Positions 9,065 through 34,052 of a DNA stretch of 36,765 bases are shown piece by piece. The translations under genes and the position numbers were made by a program. Where the stretch lies: contig PS015101.1 in assembly GCA_048213135.1 (NCBI GenBank), positions 51,514 through 88,278 on the forward strand, given 5' to 3'. The notes under the pieces were generated by a model. That model saw only the letters and a list, made by a program, of their open reading frames with translations, ran no database searches and was not told the origin of the DNA. This stretch comes from Reclinomonas americana ATCC 50394 (taxonomy: Eukaryota). Each line of letters begins with the position of its first letter. Position 1 is the first letter of the stretch.

Positions 9065-10550
9065 ATGGGCAAGGGAAAGAAGGCCGCACGCGCGGGAGAA
9101 GATGAGGACACGAGGGTCCGTATTGCCATTGTGTCTGGCGAGCGATGCAAGCCGCGCAAGTGCAAGCAGGAGTGCAAGAAGAACTGCCCGATTGTGAAGA
9201 TGGGTGAGTGGCAGCAGAGAAAAGAAGGAGACGGGCGAAGTGGGGTTGGGACATGGTGCGCACACATGTGTGCTCACTTTCACACGCACACGTGCATGTG
9301 TGTGCACTTGAGTTGCTTGATGCGTCCATCTGCACGCGCTTGTGCCGATGTCTGTGAGTGAGTGGGCAGTGAGCAGCGAGGGGACATGTCCAAACTGCGA
9401 CTGTCTGTGTGTGTGACCACTCATGTGACCACTCGCGTGCAGGCAAGCTGTGCATTGAGGTGAATCCGGCCGACAAGATCTCCTTCATCTCCGAGGAGCT
9501 GTGCATCGGATGCGGCATCTGTGTCAAGGTTCATCAAGATTGGAAGGGCCGACTTGTCTTTTCCCAGCGCAGATCCTAACTCGGTCGTTCGTGCAGAAAT
9601 GCCCATTCGAGGCCATTGCGATCATCAATCTGCCGAAGGATTTGTCGTCGCAGACCACACATCGTTATGGACCCAACTCGTTCAAGCTGCATCGTCTGCC
9701 GCAGCCGCGTCCGGGTCAGGTGCTCGGTCTCGTCGGCTCCAATGGAACGGGCAAGTCGACAGCGCTGAAGATCCTCGTCGGCCAGTACAAGCCGAATCTG
9801 GGCCGCTGGGATGTTGCGCACGCATGCATTCGTTTCCTGTGGTGTTAGTCTTCAAGCTCAATCTCCTCTGTCTCGCTTTCCAGAACCCGCCAGAGTGGAC
9901 CGAGATCCTGCAGTACTTCCGTGGCTCGGATCTGCAAAACTACTTCACCAGGCAGCTGGAGGAGAGGCTGCGTGCCAAGATCAAGCCGCAGTACGTCGAC
10001 CACATCCCCAAGGCCGTCAACGGCACCGTGAACCAGGTGGTGGCGTCCAAGGACGAGAAGCAATGTCGCGATCATTTGCTGAGGGAACTCGGTGCGCAGT
10101 GAGCCCGTTGTCTCTCTCCCCCCTCCGCTTCTCTCTCTCTCTCTCTCACACACACACGTTCGAATAGACCTCGAGAAGATTGCTCACCGCAACGTGGGCG
10201 ACCTGAGCGGTGGTGAGCTGCAGCGCTTTGCCATTGCTGTGGTGTGGATGCAGGAGGCCGATGTGTACTTGTTTGATGAGCCGTCGTCGTACCTCGACAT
10301 CAAGCAGCGCCTCGTGGCTGCGCGCATCATTCGCGACCTGCTGACCACCGACAACTACGTGGTCGTCGTCGAGCACGATTTGTCCGTGCTGGATTACCTC
10401 TCGGACTACATTTGCATGCTGTACGGTGTGCCGGGTGCGTACGGAGTTGTCACTACCCCGTTCTCTGTCCGCGAGGGCATCAACATATTCCTGGCGGGAT
10501 TCTTGCCGACGGAGAACTTGCGCTTCCGCGAGGTGGAGCTGACCTTCAAG
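9065..10550 (+). CDS. ABCE1: ABCE1/RLI1 ribosome recycling ATPase, exons 1-5 (FeS domain and NBD1)
   Basis: [24 protein letters not shown]...|...[19 protein letters not shown]...[14 protein letters not shown]...GSNGTGKST...[12 protein letters not shown]...FDEPSSYLD...VVEHDL...ELTFK. Confidence 0.97.
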
Positions 10551-10599
10551 GTGGGTGAGGGAGAAGGGCTGGATTAGTCAAACAACTCGTTCTCTCTCT

Positions 10600-11300
10600 C
10601 TCTCTCTCTCTCACACACATTACCACCTTTTCTAGAGAAGTGGTGGGGAGCAGAGACAAAGAAAACGAGGAAGACGAGAGAGAGAAGACAGAAGGGGAGC
10701 ATGAAAAGAGAACGAATGAGAGGGGAACGAGAATGCAGAGTGAGACAGGAAGAAGAGGAGTTTGTTAGTCTTTTGCCCTGTTTCTGTTCGTGCGACTGCT
10801 GTCCTCTTCTCTCTCTCACACACACACAGTCTCTGTCGTATTGTCACCCTTGTTAGAGAAGTGAGAAGAGCAGAAAGAGAGAGAAGAGGGCAGCAGGCGC
10901 CACGAATAGACACACAGCGCAAAGCAAACGCACATCTTCTTCCTCTCACTTTCTCTTCATCCCTCCCCTGTCACTCACTCTCTATTCTTGTGCTCCATTC
11001 TTTTCTCTCTCATCTTCCTCGTTATTTTCGGGTCTCTCTCTCGCTCTCTCAGTCTCTGTCGTATTGTCACCCTTGCTAGAAAAGTGAGAAGAGCAGAAAG
11101 AGAGAGAAGAGGGCAGCAGTCGCAAGAACAGACACAGCCACAGCTCAAAGCAATACACACTATTCTTCCTCTCACTTTCTCTTCTCACTCACTCTCTTTT
11201 CTTGTACTCCCTCCCATTCTTTTTCTCTCTCATAGTCTCTCACATTGTCACATTTGCTGGAAAGTGGTGGGGAGAGCAGAACCGTAGAGGACGAGGATAA
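10600..11300. repeat. About 220-bp intronic tandem duplication in ABCE1 intron 5
   Basis: AGTCTCTGTCGTATTGTCACCCTTG.TAGA.AAGTGAGAAGAGCAGAAAGAGAGAGAAGAGGGCAGCAG at about 10828 and 11051, with partial copies near 10618 and 11235. Confidence 0.8.
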
Positions 11301-12061
11301 CGAGAGAGAAAGGAGAGAATGGGAGCACCAGAAGAGGGGAGACAGGAAGAAGATTGTTTCGCAATATATCGGGCTGTGTCGATTCTTGCATCTCACACAC
11401 TCAACTTTCACGCCTTGTTGCACTCTCCCTCTCCCGTTGTGTCTCTCATTCTCACTGTTGCTCTCGATTCTGCTGCGTCGTCGTTTTGTTCCTCCCTTCT
11501 TCCTTTTTCCTCCTTCCCCTCTCTATTTACCCTCTGTACCATCTCCGCCCCACGCTCTTCCTCTCTCTGGCACTTTTCATTCTCTTCTCTCTCTCTCTCN
11601 NNNNNNNNNNNNNNNNNNNNNNNNNNNNNNNNNNNNNNNNNNNNNNNNNNNNNNNNNNNNNNNNNNNNNNNNNNNNNNNNNNNNNNNNNNNNNNNNNNNN
11701 NNNNNNNNNNNNNNNNNNNNNNNNNNNNNNNNNNNNNNNNNNNNNNNNNNNNNNNNNNNNNNNNNNNNNNNNNNNNNNNNNNNNNNNNNNNNNNNNNNNN
11801 NNNNNNNNNNNNNNNNNNNNNNNNNNNNNNNNNNNNNNNNNNNNNNNNNNNNNNNNNNNNNNNNNNNNNNNNNNNNNNNNNNNNNNNNNNNNNNNNNNNN
11901 NNNNNNNNNNNNNNNNNNNNNNNNNNNNNNNNNNNNNNNNNNNNNNNNNNNNNNNNNNNNNNNNNNNNNNNNNNNNNNNNNNNNNNNNNNNNNNNNNNNN
12001 NNNNNNNNNNNNNNNNNNNNNNNNNNNNNNNNNGGGCGATTACTAAAAACAGGAGACAAGA

Positions 12062-12709: not shown

Positions 12710-13108
12710 NNNNNNNNNNNNNNNNNNNNNNNNNNNNNNNNNNNNNNNNNNNNNNNNNNNNNNNNNNNNNNNNNNNNNNNNNNNNNNNNNNNNNNNNNNN
12801 NNNNNNNNNNNNNNNNNNNNNNNNNNNNNNNNNNNNNNNNNNNNNNNNNNNNNNNNNNNNNNNNNNNNNNNNNNNNNNNNNNNNNNNNNNNNNNNNNNNN
12901 NNNNNNNNNNNNNNNNNNNNNNNNNNNNNNNNNNNNNNNNNNNNTCTTGACCTGCATGCGCCCTCCCGTTGCTTGTTTTGCCCCCCATTCCCCCCACCCT
13001 TACTGCTTGCTTGTCCCCCCATTTTTTCTTTTCGACTACTCTGTTTGTGTGTGCATGAGACGTTGTTGGTGAAGTGCGTCGTCGACCATTAGACATTGTT
13101 GTTCTGTT

Positions 13109-14969: not shown

Positions 14970-16268
14970 TCATTCCGGCGGATCGACTGCTGCGGCTGCA
15001 GCTGCGGCAGACCCGGAGGCGCCCTCTTCGGCTGCCGTGGGTGGCAGGCGACTCTGCAGAAACTTGAGCAAGTCGGCGATCTCGGCGTCGCACGCCGAGT
15101 GTTGCATGCCGCGATATGTGCGGAAGTCCACCGGCACGCCCAGCTGCAGAAAACAGTGAGACAACGAAAGACGGGAATCTGTCGTGGCACTCCGCAAACA
15201 CCTTCTCCAGCAGCTCCTTCGACTTGAGACCGTAGGCGTACTTGACCAGTGGATCGGCATCGCCGTGGCCCCAGAACACTTTCGTGCCCTTGCCGTGCTC
15301 CGTCAATGCCTGCGACCAAACATGAGCAGCGCAACAACGATTGGCCGACTGCTCACTCACAACGCCAACCGTGACTTCCTCCATGAGACTCGGCGCGAGC
15401 GGGATGTACGAGCTGAGAGCCACAGCGCCAGCAAGAGGCTGCGGAGTGGTGAGCGCAGAGTAGATGGCCACGGCACCACCTGTCATGCACACAAGTTAAG
15501 CACTTGCAATAGGCAGCGCACAGAACGCGCAGGGACCTTGACTGAAGCCGCCTACGACCACACGGTCCGAGGAGACACCAGCTGCCACCTCATCATTGAT
15601 CAGCTTGTGTACTGCCAGACAAGACAGTGTGAGCAACGAAAGGCACGCCCGAAACAACTGTGAGAGGAAGACCGTAATCGACACTCTGCTTGATGCCAGC
15701 CTCGTCCTCCGGAGCTCCCTCTGTCAACGCATGAATGTCGTACCAACGAGGCTGTGTGCATACGCGCAGGTAAGCAGTGAGGGCAAAGGATGAGCTTGAG
15801 AGGCGCAAAGAACCACTGCAAAAAGGAGAGGCAAACAATCAGTATACAGTGAGGCACGCAGCAAGCTGTGACTGTGAGCAAGAGCGCAACTGGGGAAGCC
15901 AAAGTTGAGAGTCACTGGTCCCGTTTGACTGCGCAGACAACACGCACAGTGAGACAGTGTGTGTGAGAGAGAGAATCACAAAGACAGAGTGTGTGTGAGA
16001 GAGACAACGCAACGCAGTCGGAAGAATGAACTTGACATGTGGAAGACGCGGACCAAGCATGTGCGCCACAGGGTCGTGCCAGCCAGCACCAGTGTCGCCT
16101 TTTATGACAGACAATCAGTCACATAAAAGAGAGAAAGACTGATCTTTCGCGCTCACCAAGTCCATGCAAGAAGATGACTGTGGCCGAGTGCACGCCCTTT
16201 GCCTTGACAACCAGAGGCGGAGGGTAGTCAACAGGTACGCTCGAGGAGCCACTCATCTCACTGCCCAT
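14970..16268 (-). CDS. Acyl-protein thioesterase / lysophospholipase (APT1/LYPLA, abhydrolase_2)
   Basis: ATVIFLHGLG|DTGAGW...VKFILPTA|QTGPVTLNFGFP-M-PRWYDI...EDEAGI...VVVGGFSQG|GAVA...VFWGHGDADPLV...YRGMQHSAC. Catalytic Ser (GFSQG), Asp and His present. Start at 16268 or 16256. Confidence 0.95.
15814..15815 (-). other. Predicted 2-nt micro-exon (TG) of the thioesterase
   Basis: On the minus strand: ...CCC A|gttgcg...tttttgcag|TG|gttctt...cacacag|CCT CGT TGG. This builds the ATG of the conserved MPxW(Y/F)DI motif. Confidence 0.7.
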
Positions 16269-16353
16269 GAGAGAGAGAAGAAAGAGACAATGAACGCGCG
16301 CGCGCGAGTCTCTTCCTCTCTAGCACACACACGCACGCACTTTGACAGAGAGA

Positions 16354-16517
16354 ATGAGGAGACGACAGTGGGCCGACTCCTCGCCCATGGTCGACGAGCT
16401 TGCCAAGCAAGTCGAGGAGAAGAAGCGGCAAAAGGTCAATCAGTGTGTATGTGTGTGTATGCAGAGTGCAAGTGTGAGAGAGAGAGAGCACTTGTCTCTC
16501 TCTCTCTCTCAGTGTCT

Positions 16518-16551
<34 letters not shown>

Positions 16552-19500
16552 GCGTGTTCACTTCTCCACAGGCAATGGAGGACCTCGCCGATCGACGACA
16601 GACGCTGGAGCACTACAAGAGCTATGCACTGGGAGCGCAACAGCAGGGACAGGGATCGTTGAGTCTCTCTCAGTCACACATGCATCATTCATCATTCATC
16701 ATCATATCATTCATTCATCGATTGCTTAGTGAGGAACTGAATCGATTGGTGGCGGAGCAAGAGTCGCGCATTGCGGCTGTGGAACGCGAGATGAATAAGC
16801 TGTACGGTGCAAGTGGAGCTACTGTAATGGTCGCGCCTCCGTCGTCCAATGCGCCGATGACGGTGGTGACTGCCGTGCCGCGTCGTTGAGTGTGTTGCAG
16901 TTGCACGTGGAGCAGAGAGAGCGTCTGCTGATGAAGAGTGTGTGTGGGGGGCAGGCGCGACTGTGATCCCGGGAGCTGTGGCTGGTGAGCGGCGAGTGTC
17001 GCAGCCGGTGAATGCAGGAGGCGCGGATGCGGATAAGGAGAAGCTGAAGCGTGAGGCGTTTGGTCGCGATGAGTATGTACCGCCGGTGGCTGCCCAGCAG
17101 CAGCAGCAGCAGCATCGGGCTCCGGCGGCGCCTGCGCGTTCGGCGAGTGCGAATGCGGCGAAGAGCAGGCGCGATGAGATCTATGAGAAGAAGCGGCAGG
17201 AGTATCTGGCCAAGGCGCGAGGTGGCAATGGAGGTGGGGCGCCGACTAGCGCACCGTCGCATGCGTCGCGGCCGTCGGTGGCTGAGGTTTGGCGATCGTC
17301 TTTATGCTGCGGCCTTCTTTCCCCTCATTCCTCTCTCTCTTTCCGTGGTGGCAGGCGTACGGTGGTCGCGATGATGATGATGGCGACCATGGCGGTCTGG
17401 CGGAGCGAGGTCGACTGGCTGGACGGCCGCCACCGATCGATACGCTGTCGCGCCAGGTCTCTGCACCGCCTCGCGGTTTCCTCGACTCGCCGCCGAGTAG
17501 CGGTGGAGGAGGAGGAGGAGGATACATGGTGGCGGGCGCTGGTGCTGCCGGTGGCGGTGCAAGGCGTGATCCGACGCGAGCGTTCGACATGCACTCGGAT
17601 CCCACACCCACTCACGAGGCGAATCCACCACGACGGACACCGCCGGCTGTCGACGAGAGTGTTGGTCTCTTTGCTGGCATGGGCAAGGGCAATCCACCAC
17701 CGCGGCGACAGAGCAACACACCGCCCTCGGCGCCGCCATCGCGAGAAGCTCGATCGCGGCCTCCAGTGCAGGTTTGTTTGCCACAGTATCGCGTGTTCCC
17801 TCTCCTTCGTTCACAGAGCGATGCGCGCAGCCGAATTCCGGTCCGCGGGTCGACGAGAGCATTGGTCTGTTCAAGGGCTTGGGGAAAGCCGATCGACCCA
17901 CCGATCGCATCAAGCAGCGTGTGCAGTCGCCGCCAGTGTCGCCAAATCCTTCGTCGGCTCCACCCTCGGCTGGAGGCAATCGCAGGCGACCGAGTGAGGT
18001 ATTGGTGGCTTGTGCTGTGTCGTTGCCGTGCGTCTGCTGACCGTATTCCCTTCTGTGATAGCCGGAGCAGTATGATCCGAATGGCGGTCTCTTCAAGGGC
18101 CTCGGCGAGGATCGCAATCGAAATCGTGCTCGCGAATCTCCCTCCGACGCCATGATGCTGATGCCACCACCACCCGCGCCTGCCGGGCGACGTCGTACGC
18201 TGGATGGTGGTGATCCGTACGACAATGGGGGAGGAGGAGGAGGTGGCGGCGGCGGCCTGTTTGCTGGTTTGGGGCAGGAGCAGGCGGATAAGGCCGCACG
18301 GAAGCGAGAGAATCACATGGCGTACAAGCAGGAGCTGGATAGAGCGCGTGGCGAGTCCACGTCGGCGTTTGTGGCGGACAACGGACACGATGGTGCTCTG
18401 CTGCGGCGTAATTCGTCCAAGGACAATGTTGCGTTCACTGCGTTTCTCTCTTTCTTTCTTTCTTTTCCGCACCTCACATGCATGAGCTGCAATAGGTGAG
18501 GTCGACACCGCCAAGCGATCCGTACGCCGCTGTCGAGGCTGCGCACCACGGTCGTCCACGTTGCGTCGAGTGACATCCCTGCATGTGAGACTCTGCATCC
18601 CGTGCTGACCAACATTGTCCTCCAGATCCATCGCAGGAGTCGGGAGCAGCGGCGGTATGTGCATGTATGCTTGTGAGTGGTGTGGCAACTCTCGTTTCTC
18701 ACCTGCGTCGCTGCAGCCCAACGCTCGACAGCAGCAACGGGACGCAAAGGAAGAGTATCGACAAGCCCTGCGTGCGTACTGTTGTTCGTGTTGTTGGAGG
18801 ACGTGTGAACCCAAACTCAGTGGTTTCCATCTGTTGCTTCTTGCAGAGAACCAGATTCGCGAGCGTCAGAACATCGAACAGCCGGTGAGAATCAGCCTTG
18901 CCTCGATCTGCAAGCGTGTAGTATGTGTGTGTGTTCACTCGCGATTCCTGCAGCGCGGTGATGGCAGGCAGAGCTCACGCAGCGACAGTGATTCCGGTCC
19001 AGCAACGCCCACTGGCGATGGTGATGGTCTGTCACCGACCGTGGTTTGACTGCGCCATCTTTCATCTCTGAAATGTGGGGTGCTGCGGTGCAGGTCCAAA
19101 GGGATCGGTGAGAGCGCGTGGCATTCGTGCGGAACTCGCGGGCGGTGAGGATGCCGTGCGGAAAAGACATCAAGCACAACGAGAGATGCAGGAGGCCTTG
19201 CAGCGACAAGTCGAGGAGAAGAAGCGCAAACAGGAGGAGGAGAAGCGAAAAATCGAAGAGGAGGAGCGGCGTGAGGAGGAGCGGTTCCGTCGCCAGCTGG
19301 AGGAGGAGCAGAAAGCCATTCGAGCCAGTCAGGATGTGTGTGCCAGCCTCCCTTTTTGTGCTCATCCACTCGCACTCACTTTTCCCTCCCCTTTGTCAGA
19401 AACGAACGGGCAAGATGCAAAAAGCCGCTGCTGCCGCCGCACCGCCGGCGCCAGTCGTCGATGTGGTGGCGCATGGTCGGCGTCGCGGCTCACGTCAGAT

Positions 19501-21727: not shown

Positions 21728-23000
21728 TCAGAGGAGCAGAGCAAGAGCGAGGAGACCGCCAAAGAAGAGGTGATACTGGGCGGTGCGCTGTGGGAGCTTG
21801 GCCAGCTCACCCTTCTCAAATGCACCCATGAGGCGGTACGCCTGCGGGAAGGTGATCAGCGGGAGCAGGATGCGAGTCCCATACGTGGACCACACAGTGA
21901 GGAGCCAGACGTGCGCGCCAATGAGCTGCGCGCAGTACCTGTCTCTCGCCCGGCGAGTGAGTGAATGGGGGATTATGGCGACAGCAGCTCTGTGTGACGC
22001 AACACAAAGTTGCACGCCTTGCGCCCAAAGATAATCGGGAATGTGCGAATGCCAGCCGCCTTGTCGGTCTCCGCATCGCGCGTGTTATTGGCATGCAGAA
22101 TCGCCGTGGTCACCAATCCCACCGGCACCGAGGCATACAGCGTCGCCCACACATGCTCGTTGCCGAGGGCCAGCGCGCCGCCAAGCATCAACAGCGGACC
22201 TGCACACACAGCAGCAACCGAGGAGTGAGCAAGCTGGCCGACGAAACTTGACGACGACAAGTGTCGAGTCGCACCAAACACAACAAAGATCGTCACATCG
22301 CCCAACGCATGATACTTGAGCGAAAACGGCGGTCCCGTATACGAAAACGCCAGCAGCACGCCCACAAAGCCGACTCCCAGCAGTCCCGCATTGGCCATGT
22401 ACGGCAGCTCACCGGTGCCGGCCTCCAACACCGCACGCATTCTCGGCGTCGGCCACACCACCAACCACAAGCCCAACAGCACTCCCAGCGCGCCCAGAGA
22501 CACCGCCAGCTCAAACACTTGCGTGGGCGTCACTATGCGGTCCACGAGGCTGCGATCGTCGGCCGACTTGCTCGTGTCGACCTTGTAATCAAAGCTGCGA
22601 TGTATCAATAATGAAATACAGTGGCAGTGGCAAAACAAACAAACAGTGGCGCGTAACTCGAAGAAGGTGTTGAGCAGGTTGCCAAAGGCGTGCAGGCACA
22701 GCGCGGCAATCGTCATTCCCTGTGACGGAGACAACTGATGAAAATCTGACTCTCTTTCTTTCGTGTGTGTGTGTGACACTGACCAGCATGCGACTGAGAG
22801 GCCACGACTCGTCCTCGTGCAGCTCATCAACCGCCAGTGCAAAGGACACTGCGAGAGGGACAAGTGTGGCAGTGAATGACCACGGCCGCGTGGCCATAAA
22901 CTGCGCGACACACACACACACACATGCGAGTGAGCGCGCAGAGTTGCGCGTGTGAGAGAGCGGGAGTGAAGCGGCGCCAAACCAACTCTGTGAAGCCCAT
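21728..23000 (-). CDS. UBIAD1: UbiA-family prenyltransferase (UBIAD1/MenA-like)
   Basis: ATRPWSFTATLVP, GNLLNTFFD|FDYKVD...DDRSLVD, YTGPPFSLKYHALGD, AILHANNTRDAETDKAAGIRT, LPQRTAQ motifs. Confidence 0.92.
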
Positions 23001-23065
23001 TTGAAGTGGTGACGGTCTGCACCAGTCGACGGAGCACGCACTTCAATTGCGGTCGTGGCTCGGCG

Positions 23066-25360
23066 ATGCGTGTGTTTTTGCTCATTGCGCTGCTCATTGC
23101 GGCATTGGCGCTCTCTGCGGCTGCAAAGCGAGCCGGCACACGGCAACCACATCGACAGTACAGTTGCGCGCGCGCGTGTGTGTCTCACTGTCTCACTCTC
23201 TGTCACACACTCATCATATGCAGGCGACGATGGGCTCAACTTGCGGCCTATCATTGGCGTTCTCACACAGCCAAGTGATCCGGAGGTAAGATAGAGAGAG
23301 AGGGAAAAATTGTTGTCTTCTTCTCGCATTGTGATATCAACCCATGTGCTCAGTACCAACAATTCGGGCCGGCCATGATCCCTGGTGCGTCTCTTCACTC
23401 ACTTACTCTTACTCTCCTCACTGTTTGTTTGCTTAATCCTTGCATGTGTATGAGCACAGCGGCTTATGTCAAGTGGCTGGAGGTTCGTGCTGCCGTGTTG
23501 TCTTGTGCCGTGTTTGCACTTCCGCATGCCTTGGTGACCCTTGTTTGCTGGGCATTTACTCGGCGTTTGACCCTCAAACTATCGAATCCTCGACCTTTCA
23601 TTCTCTGTCCATTGTTCTGCAAGCCCTCGTCTCTTGATCTCCTGATCTTCCGACGCTTGCCCCTCGAGACGCTTGACTCTTGAACCTTGCATCCCTCGTC
23701 CCTTGATCCTCACCCTTGGACCTCGGACTGTCGAACCCTTGATCTCTTGATCTTCCCACCCTTGTCCCTCCTCGAACCCCGACCCCTCGTTCCTTGACTC
23801 TTGAACCTTTCATCCCTCGTCCCTTGACCTCGAACTCTCGAACCCTTGGATCCTTTGATCTGCCGCACAGACCTTCATCTTCAAGCCCTCGTCTCTTGAT
23901 ATTCGAACCTTTCATCCCTCGTCCCTTGATCCTCATCCTTGACCGTCGACCCTCGTACCCTTGATCTCCTGATCTTCAAGCCCTCGCCCCGTGATCTCTC
24001 GATCTTCCAACCCTCGTCCCTCGTCCCTTGATCTGTCAATCTTCCAACCCTCCTCCCATGACCCTCGAACCCCCGTCTCTTGATCTCTCGTCCCTCGCCC
24101 CTGTCGCCCTTGACCCTCATGACCCTCTGAATTGCGTTCTCTTGCGCACAGGCTGCTGGTGCACGAGTGGTGCCAATCTACTACGACTCGCCTGAGGTAC
24201 GCATGTATCGCTGCTGGATGCTTGGGAAATGCCGCTCATGCCGTGTCTTGCTTTTGTGAAGCCGGTGCTGGAGTTCATGTTCAACAGTGTCAATGGATTG
24301 GTGTTGATTGGCGGCGACACGGATCTCATTGATCATGCGACTCGTTGCGCGACGTCACTCTCTCTCTCTCTCTCCCTTGCTCTCTCTGTGTCTTGACGCT
24401 CTCCACCGACGCAGCGTATCAAATGGCCGCTCGTTACTTGTACCACCGAGCGATTCAGGCGTTTGAGCGTGAGAACGACTACTTCCCAATCTGGGGCACG
24501 TGCCTCGGGTTCGAGCAGCTGTGCATTCTCGGCGGCAACGACCAGTACGACATTCTTGGCAAGTTACGGGCTTTGAACTGAGCGTGCCTGTGTGTGGTGA
24601 CATTATCAGTGCCTGATCTGTCGGAGATGCTAGTTTCGATGCGCAGAACGAGACACTGCCGCTGCAGTTCACCGCCGATGCCGCATTGTCGCGTCTCTTT
24701 GATCCGACGGTCATCCCGATGGCCATTTACTCGGCGCTCTCCAGCAAGCCCATCACCGAGGTGCGTCGTCTCCTCGCTCAAATGCCGGCGTCGTCCACTC
24801 AATCGCAAGTGCACAGAATTACCACCACAACGGTGTCACCCCGCAAGCGTTCATGGCCAACAACAATCTCGCCATGAACTACCGCATCCTGTCGACCAAC
24901 GTGGATCGCAAGGGCGTCACCTTTGTTGCGGCCTCCGATCTCACGTATGAGTTTCTTATTTGTCTCCTTCTCATTCCACTTTCACCGCTCGGCAGATCTC
25001 CAGCATGGAGCATCGTCGCGTGCCAATCTACGCAGTGCAGTTCCACCCCGAACGACCGGCGTTCGAGTGGGACGCAAACGAGAACACACCGCACTCGTTT
25101 GACGCCATTCTGAGGTCTTGGACTTTTCCTCTTTCTTTCTCTCTTCCTCTTTCTCACTCTGTCGCCCCCCTCACAGCGGCCAGTACTTTGCCAACTTCTT
25201 CGTCCAAGAGACGCGCAAGAGCCACCACGGCTTCCCATCGCCGACCATCGAGTCGCACTATCTCATCTACTGGTGCACGTTGCAGCCCACTCTGAATATC
25301 GAATGGTTTTGTGTGTTTTGCGATGAGAAGTGTGTGCGTCGTCGGTCACGATGTTCACAG

Positions 25361-25611: not shown

Positions 25612-27576
25612 CTAGCCACGACTCTGCTTTTCTTTTGCTTGCTTGATAAACGCTAGGAGGGATTGTCGGGCAGTGGCCAGGTCTTCCCGGTACGCTGCCG
25701 CGGGATTCGTCAAACACAATTCGTGCAGATAGGGAAGACCGTCGAGATCGCTGGCACGTTCAGGAGACCGCCTTTCGACCTGCAAAGAAGAAACCCACGG
25801 CATCAGCAAGCGCGGCGATCCAGAGAACTAGTTACTCCACACCGACACGCACACACACACACCTTAACAGAGGGTACGAAAGAGTCGGCCTCACGAACGG
25901 CGCTCGGATCGGCGTTGTTATGGTAGAGCTGGGCGAAAAAGTTGACAAACGGCGACTTCCACGAGTCGGGCGCGAAGGAACCCACAGCGCCGAGCTGCTG
26001 CCGATGGATAATAATATTGGCATCGCGCGAGTCGAACGGCGGCGGGTCCGTGTCATCGTGGCGGGGAGTCGACGACGGATCCGTGCCGAAGAAGACGTAG
26101 CCGAGATTGAGGGCAAACGATTTCTTCAGCTGTGCGATGCTCTGGTGCAGCCAGCCGTTGCTCCCGAAGAAGGTGTCCGGGTGAGTCTGCGGTGGTGGGT
26201 GAGGGGATGGCGCGAGGAGGAGGAGAAAGAGTGCTGGGGCGTAAACGTACCACCATAAAGTACTCGCTGCCGTCGGCGTAGGCCTGGAAGAACATGGCGT
26301 TCCAGGGGAACCAGCGCCAGCCGGTGGCTCGTTGGATGCGCATGACCTCGAGGCGAGAGTCGGGTACAGCGCCGCGCCATTGCTGCACAAGGGAAAGGGT
26401 GAGGGGAAGGGAGGGATAAGGGGAGAAGGGGAGAAGGGAGAAGGAGAGGGGGAATGGGGAAAGGGAGAAGGGAGGGGAGAAAAGAGTGGGGGAAGAGTGG
26501 GGGAAGAGTGGGGGAAGAGGGGGAGGAAGAGGAAGAGGAAGAGGAAGAGGAAGGAGGAAGGAGGAAGAGCAGGGGGAAGAGCAAGGGGGAAGAGAAGGGA
26601 GAAGAGAGGGGAAGAGGGGAAAGAGGGGAAGAGAAGGGGAAGAGAGGGGAAAGAGGGGAAAGAGGGGANNNNNNNNNNNNNNNNNNNNGAGAAGAGAAGG
26701 GGGAAGCGAGGGAAGAGAGATGGAGAAAGAAAGAAGTGAGAGTGAGAGGACTCGAGAAGAACGAAAGAGAAGCAGGAAGAGAGAGAAAACAGGAGAGAGA
26801 AATCTCACACACGCCAGACTGTCTCTCCCCGCACTTCTCTCCCTCGATCTCTCATCAACCACGCACCAAATCAAAGTACTCCTTCAGCGTGGCGAGGAAC
26901 CCGTGTTGATCAAACACCGGATCCAGTCCCTCAATGCCGACGTACAGCTCAATGAGATGCGTGTGCGAGTCCACTACAGCACACGAAATGCAGCGGTGAG
27001 TGACAGCTATCGAATGACAAAACACTCCACCAAGGCGACGCACTTTCTATTGTGCGACGGAGTGATGACAAGAAGGTGGTGAAGAACACACACGACTCCA
27101 CGGGGCACGATGAGATGCCGAGCTCGTCGGAGCTGAGGTACACGCCAATTGCCACGCGGGTCTTGTCCTTGGCGGTGCCGGTGATCTCGCGTGGTTGTTT
27201 CTTCACCTGCGAGAAAGGGAAGGGGGCGAGGATTAGGAAAGGATGACGAGGGAGAAAAGAGAAGAGTAACGAAATGATAGAGAAAGGAAGAGAGGAAGGA
27301 AGAGAGTACAAAGGAAGAGTAAGAGAAAAGACGGCGCGACAGAGAGAGAGAGAGAGAGCACGAAAGCAACAAAGCAAGCGTGAGGGAGCAGGAGAGGGAG
27401 AGAGAGATTGAGAGTAAGAGAGGTACCAAAGTGCACACAAATGAGGCGAATGCACAGCGAGATAAACAGCGAGCAACACACACACACGCACGCACACACA
27501 CACACAGAGCGGGCAAGCAAAAGAGAGCAACAAGGTGCAAATGCGTAAAAGAGAGAAGACAGACAGACAGACAGAC

Positions 27577-27621
<45 letters not shown>

Positions 27622-30598
27622 CGAAAGCAACGAAACACGCAGCCAATAGGAGAGATCACGCAGCGCGCAAACACAAACATCGACAGCAAGAAAACAAGAG
27701 TCTCACCTGCTGCATGCCAGAATACGCAATGTCGTCGCGGAACTCCAAATAACAGCGGAGTTCCTGGTCCAACGCCTTGCGATTGTCTTCGTCTGTTACG
27801 CCCACAGGTGAGCATCCGCGCAGAGAGCAGCATCGTACCAAAAAAACAGACGCACCATCAGTGGTGGGCACAAAGGGTGCGGCAGAAAAGTCATTGTCGC
27901 ACAAGCGGCTGCCTTGCGCCAGCGACTGGAAGGTGTGTGTGCAGTGCGTGTGCACACAGTCCACGAGGGGATCGAGAATGAGCTCGAGTGCGGCGCTGTG
28001 CCTGTCGTAGCCTTGAATGTACGAGAAGCACTCGTCGGGATTGGTCGATTGTGGTCGTCGATACAGCGCCACGTGGTCGTCCTCCAGCCGTCGTACGAGA
28101 TCTATGCGGAGGTGATGAGAAGATGAATTAAGAGTAAGCGTGTGACCGATGCACGAAACACTTCAGCGAGCCCGTCAGTCGAACATGCCGGTGATCCACG
28201 TACACGACGCGCGAGTACACGCGCACCGCGTGGCGCACAACCAATGGAGCCCACGACTCGTGTGGAATGTCGAGGTAAAAGTGGAAGCCCTTTGGATCGG
28301 CCGCAAAAAGATCCTGCGCGCGACAGCGTTTAGAGAGGAGAAAGAGAGCGAAATAGAAATAGAGGGAGTGCACAAACCAGCGTGTCGTACACATCCACGT
28401 GCCGCCACATGCGCATCTCGTTCATCGCCGACTGCGTGAAACCGACGGCATAGATGGCCGCTCGTACACCGTAGTCGTAGCGATGCAGCGCGCCGACCAT
28501 GGTCGCCAGTTCCTCCACCGCGCGCTCTTCGTCGACTGCGATGAGGGGAGGGAGAAGGAGGCGAAGTGAGGGAATGGGGGAAGAGGGAAAGAAGAGAGGG
28601 TCGCAGTGAATGCGTTCTTCTGACACTCTATCCCATCTTCTCCTCTCCGTTCGCTCGTTTCGCTGCTTGGCAAGTCACCACCTCTGCGTCCTTTTGTCAC
28701 ACAGACGTCGTGCACTGCTCTTTCTCTTCAATGGAGTGGCCTCTCGTTGGTGCTAAGAAGTAGACAGAAAGCACTACGTGATGGCCTATTCGTATTCGTG
28801 ATTGCATGTGCTCACCGGCTATCAGCACAACGTGCTGCTCTCTCTCTCTCTCTCTCTCTCTGTGGTGTGTATGCCTATTCGCATGCCTGTTGCCCACATT
28901 CCTTTCCATCCCTTCTTCACTTGTCACTGTCGCACAGCTATCAGCTCTCTCTCATGTGCGTATGCGCGTGTTTGCCTATCGTACTCATCGCTACGCTGTC
29001 TAAATTCACGCGCCGCTGTCGCACGATGTCAGAACGATGTGTTGCTCTCTCTCTCTCTCCGTGTTTGGCTATCACCGTTGCATCACTAGGCTTCCTGTTT
29101 GCACGCACAATCAAAGCGTATTGTGCTGTTCTCACGCTCTCAATCGCACAGTTTTCTCCTGTTCCAGCGTGCCCTTCTCCTTCTCTCTCCCACACTCACC
29201 GCGATCGCCATGATTAATGTCCAACACAGGCACGAGAATTACAGTGACCTGCGAGGCCGCCAGCGGATCGCGCACGGTGACCGTGGCCTGCGGATTGTTT
29301 TCGTCATCGCCGAGATCAATCACGGCTCCCGACGATGACGACGAAGATGATGATGACGATGAAGATGAAGATGGTGGCAATGCAGGTGGCGTCGCAGGCG
29401 ACACGGGAATCGGTGCTCCAGTGGCCTGTGCACAGGATTAGAGAGAAGCAGATAGTCACAAATGCATACCGCCATCACGCAACTGCAGCCACCTGCCGAT
29501 CCACAAATCGCTTCACCGACTGCCGCACGGCCTTCTCCAGCTCCTCCAGTCGCTCATTGGTCTCTCGCCGAACCCATCGCTTGAACTGCGGGGGAGAACG
29601 AGAGCGCGAATGAGCAATGGAGGAAGGAAGCGATCGATGAGAGAGGAGTGGAGAAGAAGGGGAAGCTTGAATGCGAGTGAGCGACGGCGTGTGTGCGGGA
29701 GCGAAGGTGAATGCGATGGAGTGAGAGAGAGTGAGCGTGCAAGTGAGTGCGCGATGTTGTAAGCGATGGTGTATGCAATGAAGTGAGTGAGTGAGTGAGA
29801 GAGAGAGAGAGTGAGAGTGTGTGCGTGTATACGGGAGCGAAGGTGCATGCGATGGAGTGTGTGTGAGGGAGAGAGAGAGAGCAGCTGTATGCAATCGGGT
29901 GGTGTGAGCTAAGTGATGGTGTATCCGATGAAGTGAGAGAGTGAGTGAGTGAGTGTGTGTGTGAGCGATACAGTGAATGAGCGATAGNNNNNNNNNNNNN
30001 NNNNNNNAGAGAAAGAGAGAAGAGAGAGAGAGAAAGAGAGAGAGAGAGACAGAGAGAGGGAGGAAGAGAGTGAGAAGAAAGAGAGAAGAAGAGAATACGT
30101 GAGAGTGAAAGAACAAGACGCGTGTCACCCTCTCTCTCTCTCTCGCACACACACACACGCACACACACGCACACACACGCACGCACACACGCACACAGAG
30201 ACACGCACATCCTTGTCAATCAACTCTCTCACACTCTCTCTCCTCTCTTTCTCCCTCCTCCCTCTCTCTCCCTCTCTCTCCTCTCTCTCACACACACACA
30301 CCGAGTTGACCGACTCTGCAACTGCAGCAGTCACCGCCGCCGCATCGACCTTGCCACTCGCACTCTCCTTTCCTGCTGCAGCAGTCGCCGCCGCCGCCGC
30401 CGGGCGCCGCCCATTGGTCGGCCGACTTGAACCTGCCGTCGATCCATCACCAACCACCACAGGCGTCAACGACAACGCACTGTTGTTATCAGTGTTGTTG
30501 TTGTTGCCTCCGCCGCGGAGAATGACCACCAGTGAGATGAGAATGTAGAGAGAGACAGCGCCCACTGTCACGTATCGCCAGTTGATGGCGACTGTCAT
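25612..30598 (-). CDS. Type II membrane glycosyltransferase-like protein, possibly two GT-A-like domains
   Basis: N-terminal TM (YVTVGAVSLYILISLVVIL) and low-complexity stem. Domain 1: AIYAVGF...WAPLVVRHAVRVYSRVVYVD. Domain 2: ELYVGIEGLDPVFD...WNAMFFQAYADGSEYFMV|THPDTFF..GW. Exons link in frame. Function inferred. Confidence 0.6.
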
Positions 30599-31493: not shown

Positions 31494-32264
31494 TTATTGC
31501 ACGAGCAGGTTGCGGACGGTGCGGCGGACGTACCAGGCGGCGGCGTCGGGGATAATGGCGCGCAGGACGGCGCCGAAGCGGTAAAAGGGCTTGAACCAGA
31601 TCTCGCGGCGCTCCTCGGCCAGGCCCTGGATCATGAGGTCGACGCAGTGCTCCACGCTCATCATCTTGTCCTCGCGGAATTGTCGCGACACGCCGCCCAG
31701 CGACGATTGACTGTGCAATAGAAAGTGAGCAGGCGATTGTGGACACTCTCGTGTGTGTGTGCGGGCGGACGCACCGAATGTCGGTGCGCACAAAGGGCGG
31801 GTAGATCTTGCAGAGGTGCACGCGACGTGACGGCGGCAGGTCCGCGCGCTCATTGTACACCGAGTCGAGGAAGGCTGGCGGGAGGGGGGGGGGCGAGTGA
31901 GCATGCAGTGCACGAGAAGGAGACCACGACGGGGATGCACCATTGAGCGCGGCCTTGGTCGGCGCGTATCCGCTGCGGTAGGGCGGCGAGAAGTAGGCTG
32001 ATGGGGCATGCATTCGTGAGCGAGGAAGATGGCTGAGAGGGAGGGAGAGCAGCAACAAGGGTAGAGATGCCGACAGGCAGATCGAGAGTTGAACTCTGGC
32101 TCTCTCTCTCACTATTTTCCTGTCACCTCCTTGTCTCACCTCGTACTCTGGCTCTCTCACACGTTTCTGCTTCCCTCTCTCTCCGTCTCCTCTATGCCTG
32201 TTCCTCTCGCCTCGTTATCTCTCTGCTTTCTTCTCTGGTTTCGTGTAGTCTCCGTGTCACTATT

Positions 32265-32308
<44 letters not shown>

Positions 32309-33977
32309 GGTTTCTGTTGTTCAGCTTGCTCCTCTCGCCTTGCGCTCTCACACATTTGCCGATAAGTTTCTCTCGGCCTGCGGACTGACTGCGCTGCGAC
32401 ACCACCACCATACTGCAGTGCGGCCCATCGCTGCTGACTGCGGATCTCCTGATGCTCTCTCATCTCTCTCTCTCTCTCTCTCTGGCTGCCAGAGAGAGAG
32501 AGAAACAGGGTAGAATGCAAGAGAATAGAATGAGAGAGCTGAGGCAAAGAGTGACACTAAGAGTTCTCGATACCAGAATATGAAGCGGAGAGTTGGCAAA
32601 GAAAGAAAAAAGAAAGAAAGAAAGAGAGAGATGAGACAGCATCAGGAGTTCCGAAGTCAGCAACGTGGCCGCACTGCAGAATGGTGGTGTCGCTGCCAGT
32701 CTGCAACCTGATCGCCTCTCACTCACTGTGCTCTCTCTGATTTCTCTCTCGCGCCTCTGCCTCGCCTCTCGAGCATCCTCTCAACACACTTTCCTGCAGT
32801 TCTGCTTGCTCCGCTTTCCTTGCCTCCACTCTCCCCCCACACTCACCAGCGAGCGACGACACCACAGCCAGCGTGCCATTCGTCTTCTCCAGCTCCGGCA
32901 GCGCAGCCTTGGTGGTCACCACCGGTCCAATGTAGTTGGTCTCCATCAGCTGGCGGTAGAGCGTGGCCGGATCGTCGACCTCCTCCAGCGTCTTCACCAT
33001 GGAGACTCCGGCGTTGAGAATGACCATGTCGAGCTGGCCTCCGAGAGCGCGCACAGACTCGCGGATCAGACGCTCACAGTCCTCGGGCTTGGAGGCGTCG
33101 GCGACCACCACGGCGGCGGAGGAGCCATTCTCCTGAGAGGGAGAGAGAGGGAGTGAGAGAGAGGAGAGCAGAGGAGAGGAGAGCGTGGTGACTCACTCGG
33201 CAGCGCTGCGCGACAATGTCCAGTTGTTCCTTGCGACGTGCGGACAAGACAAGCCTGCAGAAAGAAGAGAGAGAGAGAGGGAGGAAGGAGGAGAGAGACA
33301 GGAGGGGTGTGAATAAGTGAGTGAGACGAGAGGAAGGACNNNNNNNNNNNNNNNNNNNNNNNNNNNNNNNNNNNNNNNNNNNNNNNNNNNNNNNNNNNNN
33401 NNNNNNNNNNNNNNNNNNNNNNNNNNNNNNNNNNNNNNNNNNNNNNNNNNNNNNNNNNNNNNNNNNNNNNNNNNNNNNNNNNNNNNNNNNNNNNNNNNNN
33501 NNNNNNNNNNNNNNNNNNNNNNNNNNNNNNNNNNNNNNNNNNNNNNNNNNNNNNNNNNNNNNNNNNNNNNNNNNNNNNNNNNNNNNNNNNNNNNNNNNNN
33601 NNNNNNNNNNNNNNNNNNNNNNNNNNNNNNNNNNNNNNNNNNNNNNNNNNNNNNNNNNNNNNNNNNNNNNNNNNNNNNNNNNNNNNNNNNNNNNNNNNNN
33701 NNNNNNNNNNNNNNNNNNNNNNNNNNNNNNNNNNNNNNNNNNNNNNNNNNNNNNNNNNNNNNNNNNNNNNNNNNNNNNNNNNNNNNNNNNNNNNNNNNNN
33801 NNNNNNNNNNNNNNNNNNNNNNNNNNNNNNNNNNNNNNNNNNNNNNNNNNNNNNNNNNNNNNNNNNNNNNNNNNNNNNNNNNNNNNNNNNNNNNNNNNNN
33901 NNNNNNNNNNNNNNNNNNNNNNNNNNNNNNNNNNNNNNNNNNNNNNNNNNNNNNNNNNNNNNNNNNNNNNNNNNNNN

Positions 33978-34052
<75 letters not shown>

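Follow-up and report, generated by a model that had tools for sequence, protein, structure and literature searches.

The dinucleotide TG at positions 15815-15814 (minus strand) is most probably a constitutive internal exon, only two nucleotides long, in a gene for a serine hydrolase of the APT1/LYPLA type. The gene lies within a stretch of 36,765 nucleotides, here called the window. As proposed, two complete short spliceosomal introns, one of 75 nt in phase 1 and one of 62 nt in phase 0, would lie 2 nt apart. Removal of both would bring together A, TG and CCT and restore a nearly invariant methionine, and the mature message would read ...TTCCCC-ATG-CCTCGTTGG... The splicing we infer from homology and splice signals, and on these grounds the two-nucleotide exon stands ahead of its rivals by a clear margin.

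The host gene has nine exons and 263 codons on the minus strand, with no internal stop (Table 1). Exon boundaries other than those around the TG were set by homology and by GT..AG, and the exons were joined by their coordinates. The translated stretch of exons 7 and 8 matches the Pfam family Abhydrolase_2 (PF02230) with 39.7 bits (E 6.3e-10; cut-off 23), and weak matches to the same family are found in exons 1 and 5 at the expected profile positions. The exon 5 match, to profile positions 64-87, begins at the very first residue of that exon. A G-x-S-x-G nucleophile serine, an aspartate and a histidine are all present in the predicted protein, and the triad columns are strongly conserved: Ser129 is S and Asp189 is D in 138 of 138 homologues, and His221 is H in 137. 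At seven of the eight exon junctions the alignment has no gap in 121 or more of the 138 homologues, and the eighth falls in a loop of variable length. With an open model of 263 codons, a conserved triad and ungapped junctions, the gene therefore looks intact and functional. Its product is assigned from sequence to the acyl-protein-thioesterase/lysophospholipase family, with a predicted activity. Intron 7, which interrupts the variable loop, is itself in frame and stop-free; its retention would add 17 residues and keep the frame, and the same loop length is found in only 21 of the 138 homologues.

Solved relatives in the PDB are human APT1/LYPLA1 and APT2/LYPLA2 (1fj2, 5sym, 5syn and 6bje). With these the predicted protein shares the Abhydrolase_2 match, the Ser-Asp-His triad and the segment N-x4-M-P-x-W-[YF]-D; unlike the human enzymes it bears an Ala-rich C-terminal tail. 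Identity of the model to the homologues retrieved is about 45-53% among the matches listed. A word-index protein search with the exon 7-8 stretch gave no scoring protein among 2391 candidates. An exhaustive protein search gave 72 matches, with identities of at most 59% over the matched stretches, and in a further search from the closest match none of the best 120 of 694 proteins was more than 53% identical to the model.

Table 1. Exons and introns of the gene model for the APT-like hydrolase, in window coordinates
Feature	Position	Strand	Basis
Coding region of the APT-like gene, ATG to stop	14970..16268	-	Model translation, Pfam, triad columns
Exon 1, 112 nt, ATG start	16157..16268	-	Junction ungapped in 135/138 homologues
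Intron 1, 58 nt, GTGAGC..AAAAG	16099..16156	-	Sequence
Exon 2, 85 nt	16014..16098	-	Junction ungapped in 134/138 homologues
Intron 2, 85 nt, GTTGCG..CGCAG; first six bases as in intron 3	15929..16013	-	Sequence
Exon 3, 38 nt; last base A is position 1 of the Met codon	15891..15928	-	Sequence
Intron 3, 75 nt, GTTGCG..TGCAG, phase 1	15816..15890	-	Sequence; YTNAY A at -35 and -24; purine fraction 0.33
Proposed 2-nt exon TG, completing Met79	15814..15815	-	Top splice model; Met column M in 132/138
Intron 4, 62 nt, GTTCTT..CACAG, phase 0	15752..15813	-	YTNAY A at -40, -27 and -20; purine fraction 0.32
Exon 5, 79 nt, begins with the Pro codon of PRWYDI	15673..15751	-	Pfam 64-87; 5syn_A residues 73-96
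Intron 5, 61 nt, GTCTTC..GGCAG	15612..15672	-	Sequence
Exon 6, 75 nt, nucleophile Ser motif	15537..15611	-	Alignment
Intron 6, 57 nt, GTCCCT..GACAG	15480..15536	-	Sequence
Exon 7, 119 nt	15361..15479	-	Pfam, PDB relatives
Intron 7, 51 nt, GTGAGT..CGCAG, variable-length loop	15310..15360	-	Sequence, alignment
Exon 8, 108 nt, catalytic Asp	15202..15309	-	Alignment
Intron 8, 58 nt, GTGTTT..TGCAG	15144..15201	-	Sequence
Exon 9, coding part, 174 nt (57 codons and stop), catalytic His	14970..15143	-	Alignment

The block around the TG can be read directly from the sequence of the minus strand. Exon 3 runs to ...GGCTTCCCCA, with CCCA as its last four bases. The 75-nt stretch that follows has a pyrimidine-rich end, TTTGCCTCTCCTTTTTGCAG, of which the last bases are TGCAG. 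After the TG, the 62-nt stretch starts with GTTCTT, carries CTCAC inside and ends in CACAG, and exon 5 then opens at 15751 with CCTCGTTGGTACGAC (CCTCGT). The TG is thus set directly between a canonical acceptor and a canonical donor, CAG-TG-GT (15818-15812). An earlier note, made from the letters of this DNA, had proposed the same arrangement, and its coordinates, lengths and splice-signal motifs all match the sequence. Its reading of the two outcomes also holds. With the TG spliced in, the joined product is ...FGFP-M-PRWYDI, in which Met79 is encoded by A-TG, and this fits the APT1/LYPLA motif, in agreement with the family alignment; with the TG omitted, A is joined to CCT, the frame is shifted and the first stop appears at codon 111.

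How often would such an arrangement appear by accident? The interior of the 139-nt block was randomised 20000 times. Of the 20000 shuffles, 1525 (7.6%) contained some AG-NN-GT that split the block into two halves of 45 nt or more, and 100 (0.5%) contained AG-TG-GT placed in this way. A chance origin of AG-TG-GT with usable halves is unlikely.

Splice models were also ranked against the protein family. All models with no, one or two introns of at least 30 nt were enumerated between 15928 and 15673, with GT or GC donors (38 donor positions) and AG acceptors (15 positions), and the 1202 models that were in frame and stop-free were kept. These were scored with an HMM built from 138 homologues, the model sequence itself being left out. 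The set comprised all proteins of 200-350 residues among 191, with 53 dropped for length; part of it was collected with a query that contained the motif, which constitutes a mild selection bias. The ranking presupposes a functional gene and a correct assembly, here a scaffold with six N gaps. The model that includes the TG ranks first, with 315.1 bits, and the second (305.5 bits) uses an alternative intron 4 donor and gains three extra residues.

The family alignment shows what is at stake in the choice. The segment P-[VI]-[TS]-L-N-x4-M-P-x-W-[YF]-D-[IL] spans exactly 16 residues in 135 of the 138 homologues, and there is no insertion in the conserved P-to-I segment in any of the 138. Its columns are N in 132, M in 132, P in 117, W in 136, Y or F in 132 and D in 135 of the 138; the methionine column otherwise holds V twice, W once and a gap three times. 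The model reproduces the family segment only with the TG spliced in, and it does so exactly. No single intron, whatever its boundaries, can yield a methionine at this place, since no TG adjoins CCT. Two database proteins start exactly at the methionine of M-P-A-W-Y-D-I and continue uninterrupted afterwards; an exon boundary directly before that methionine in other eukaryotes could be the source of such gene calls.

The two flanking introns look ordinary for their gene. Their lengths are inside its range of 51-85 nt, both have a CAG acceptor, and in both a YTNAY A is situated 20-27 nt from the acceptor (-14 to -22 in the other six introns; the motif is present in all eight). Their low purine fractions compare with 0.37 for the pooled introns and 0.49 for the pooled exons. 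No other intron of the gene has as good a pyrimidine tract as intron 3. The intron 4 donor, GTTCTT, departs widely from the textbook consensus, but five of the gene's eight donors are equally divergent: the divergent forms are GTCTTC, GTCCCT, GTGTTT, GTTGCG (twice) and GTTCTT, and the remaining two are GTGAGC and GTGAGT. All eight begin with GT. In the neighbouring plus-strand gene (16354-16900), as read, the donors are GTCAAT and GTTGAG, and taken over both genes the acceptor is CAG or TAG in nine of ten introns. Judging from these ten introns, little information beyond GT seems to reside in the donors of this organism. Intron length itself is a weak argument for the two-nucleotide exon, because the neighbour has an apparent intron of 137 nt and one of 134-139 nt would not be out of place. 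Did introns 3 and 4 originate as introners or repeats? Neither has a second copy in the window, and this origin was rejected; a search for copies of the gene's introns within the window gave only microsatellite matches, for intron 2.

The rival that survives best does away with the small exon altogether, although it is still a very improbable one. Here a single GC-AG intron of 134 nt (15885-15752) is removed, the product reads FGFP-SC-PRWYDI, one residue longer and with P-S-C-P in place of P-M-P, and AG-TG-GT is a coincidence. It is the best of the single-intron models, fourth of the 1202 with 303.7 bits, and an intron of comparable size is apparent in the neighbouring gene. The score is nevertheless 11.4 bits below that of the model with the TG. 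The 17-residue segment it predicts is found in none of the 138 homologues, and the methionine is missing in only six. GC donors usually require a strong consensus, and the donor here, GCTCTT, is unlike one, in a gene whose eight donors are all GT. The occurrence of AG-TG-GT, at the 0.5% level, is also left unexplained.

A second rival, marginally less credible again, is that splicing takes out intron 4 but leaves 15890-15816 in place, in the main isoform or in a substantial one, so that 26 residues replace the methionine, a net gain of 25. The earlier note had raised such retention as a caveat. It was right that these 75 nt keep the frame and contain no stop and that 25 residues would be added (259 vs 234 in a truncated model), and there is a parallel in Selaginella VPS55, where an intron that flanks a 1-nt exon is reported to be alternatively retained (PMC8831610). 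The caveat carries little weight, as openness is expected by chance: the frame is also open in 10334 of the 20000 shuffles, and read-through is stop-free for six of the eight introns of the gene. The retained form scores 292.5 bits, 22.6 under the top model, and ranks 25th. An insertion at this place is present in none of the 138 homologues, and it would adjoin the membrane-binding 'beta tongue' of APT2. The stretch also resembles an intron in its composition, in the six bases that it shares with the start of intron 2, in its branch-point-like motif and in its pyrimidine tract. That the locus gives no functional mRNA as modelled, being either a decaying copy or the product of a base-level assembly error that hides one ordinary intron, is likewise highly doubtful. 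In its favour, six N runs in 36.8 kb mark the assembly as a draft. Against it, the nine exons run for 263 codons without a stop, keep the triad columns and join without gaps against the homologues, and an error would need to create an AG-TG-GT, seen in 100 of the 20000 shuffles, that also restores the frame and the methionine.

If the TG is a two-nucleotide exon, how might it be spliced? Only 2 nt separate the intron 3 acceptor from the intron 4 donor, and factors bound at the two sites would therefore overlap or exclude each other, as is to be expected from splice-site recognition in general. The most probable route would be two ordinary spliceosomal reactions, each on a complete short intron recognised as a unit (intron definition), with one intron removed after the other. 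The suggestion of strict intron definition with ordered splicing, also made in the earlier note, is thus plausible. Either order of removal would leave the other intron with an intact GT, a branch-point-like motif and CAG. Were intron 3 to be removed first, the context of the intron 4 donor would change from G-T-G/GT to A-T-G/GT, slightly nearer to the consensus usual for donors. If exon 3 were joined straight to exon 5, the message would be frameshifted.

A nested arrangement was considered and rejected. Removal of GTGGTT..CACAG as an internal intron leaves the outer intron without an AG, and all nested combinations that omit the TG stay out of frame. There is nonetheless a likeness to the stwintrons of fungi, as described in the sources consulted, in that two consecutive splicing reactions take place on close or overlapping signals; recursive splicing, too, consists of consecutive reactions on closely spaced or overlapping signals. 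A stwintron has its internal intron inserted within a splice signal of the outer one, with nothing left between the two, whereas here each intron is complete and 2 nt are kept.

Exons shorter than a codon are rare, but there is precedent for them. In Coprinopsis cinerea, a long-read annotation is reported to hold 13 one-nucleotide, 57 two-nucleotide and 27 three-nucleotide exons, the two-nucleotide ones spread over 50 genes, and omission of the micro-exon makes an alternative stop in 63 of the 89 gene models concerned (PMC12230235). The fungal cases, so far as described there, share with the one proposed here an internal exon of 1-3 nt, short introns on both sides and an intron-dense host genome, but the C. 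cinerea exons are backed by long RNA reads, and the TG exon is predicted from genomic sequence and homology. In plants, APC11 and VPS55 each have a validated and conserved 1-nt exon that annotation had missed; ordinary aligners are reported to fail to place such tiny exons, with APC11 as the example (PMC8831610). The original report of a 1-nt exon was in Arabidopsis (PMC4674806). As in APC11 and VPS55, a sub-codon exon would here lie between two canonical introns and be needed for the correct protein. The plant exons, as reported, are of 1 nt, validated by RT-PCR and kept across land plants, whereas the TG exon has 2 nt; their flanking introns are plant-sized, unlike the short introns here, and the VPS55 donor is a strong GTRAGT. 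A paper devoted to 2-nt exons was not found in the literature searched. The TG exon would thus add to a phenomenon already documented in fungi and plants. The earlier note had called exons of 1-3 nt very rare, and this wording has to be tempered in view of the C. cinerea and plant cases. Its central proposal of a 2-nt exon stands, as it comes out top of all the enumerated splice models and fits the family alignment.

The position of the split codon within the protein is also of interest. In the alignment with the full-length APT2 chain 5syn_A, the first residue of exon 5, a proline, falls on residue 73, and the methionine therefore corresponds to position 72. In APT2, M68, K69 and M70 are reported to be at or near the tip of the membrane-binding 'beta tongue', and the changes M68E and M70T to abolish liposome binding (10.1101/2020.06.18.157545). 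Position 72 is near M68-M70, so the pair of introns sits in coding sequence beside the beta-tongue element. As the methionine adjoins the segment that anchors human APT2 in the membrane, an incorrect gene model would give a false picture of a functional region of the protein.

Other features of the window can be described briefly. The APT-like gene on the minus strand (ATG at 16268) and a small coiled-coil-like gene on the plus strand (ATG at 16354) are arranged head to head, and the 85 nt between the start codons (16269-16353) suggest a shared bidirectional promoter. The apparent intron of this neighbour (16435-16571, plus strand) contains a long GA/CT microsatellite, and introns of more than 85 nt thus do occur. 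An open reading frame of 403 codons (21973-23184, minus strand) matches the UbiA prenyltransferase family (PF01040, 70.2 bits). Its nearest database proteins carry the label 1,4-dihydroxy-2-naphthoate octaprenyltransferase, at no more than 38% identity over about half of the query; these matches are distant, and most are unnamed or come from bacterial metagenome bins. The frame constitutes one long exon, in contrast to the finely split APT-like gene. A Pfam search of 30 long open reading frames of the window gave this one clear match and one below threshold, and Rfam and tRNA scans gave no matches. The sequence is a draft scaffold, with six N runs of 1674 bases in total (2515-2841, 11600-12033, 12710-12944, 26669-26688, 29988-30007 and 33340-33977). 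The GC fraction is 0.38-0.42 in the 2-kb bins 10001-12000 and 32001-34000 vs 0.50-0.61 elsewhere, with N runs in both of these bins that may lower the figure.

Is the same architecture present elsewhere? A pattern of AG, TG and GT, a spacer of 35-65 nt, AG and then codons for P-x-W-[YF]-D-[IM], i.e. AGTGGT-N(35-65)-AGCCNNNNTGGTWYGAYAT, matches the window once. A metagenome scan with it returned 42 loci, none of them APT-like by tblastn with the model and by their downstream translations. All 42 are judged from sequence to be chance matches, in a number roughly as estimated beforehand.

Could the TG exon be one sign of a wider habit of the organism? A broad explanation of this kind is offered tentatively and is rather unlikely to be right as a whole. 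It supposes a poorly sampled eukaryotic lineage (the nearest protein, among the matches listed, is 53% identical) whose spliceosome would rely almost wholly on signals internal to the intron, namely the branch point, the 3' end and a short length. The 5' splice sites would be little more than GT, sub-codon exons would be tolerated throughout the genome, and the pair of introns here would have been born when a second intron was gained 2 nt from an older one.

If the two-nucleotide exon is real, the APT-like gene can be read correctly only by accepting an exon of less than one codon. Exons of this size escape standard gene finders and read aligners, which leads to a truncated protein or to a spurious insertion of 25 residues. 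The locus would also offer a compact substrate for splicing, with two short introns, 139 nt in total, and a very weak donor consensus. It would suit the question of whether splicing follows a fixed order when a 3' and a 5' splice site are separated by just 2 nt. Should the reading of a lineage with weak donors be true, the locus would constitute a natural test case for the minimal spacing of 3' and 5' splice sites and for the order in which they are used.
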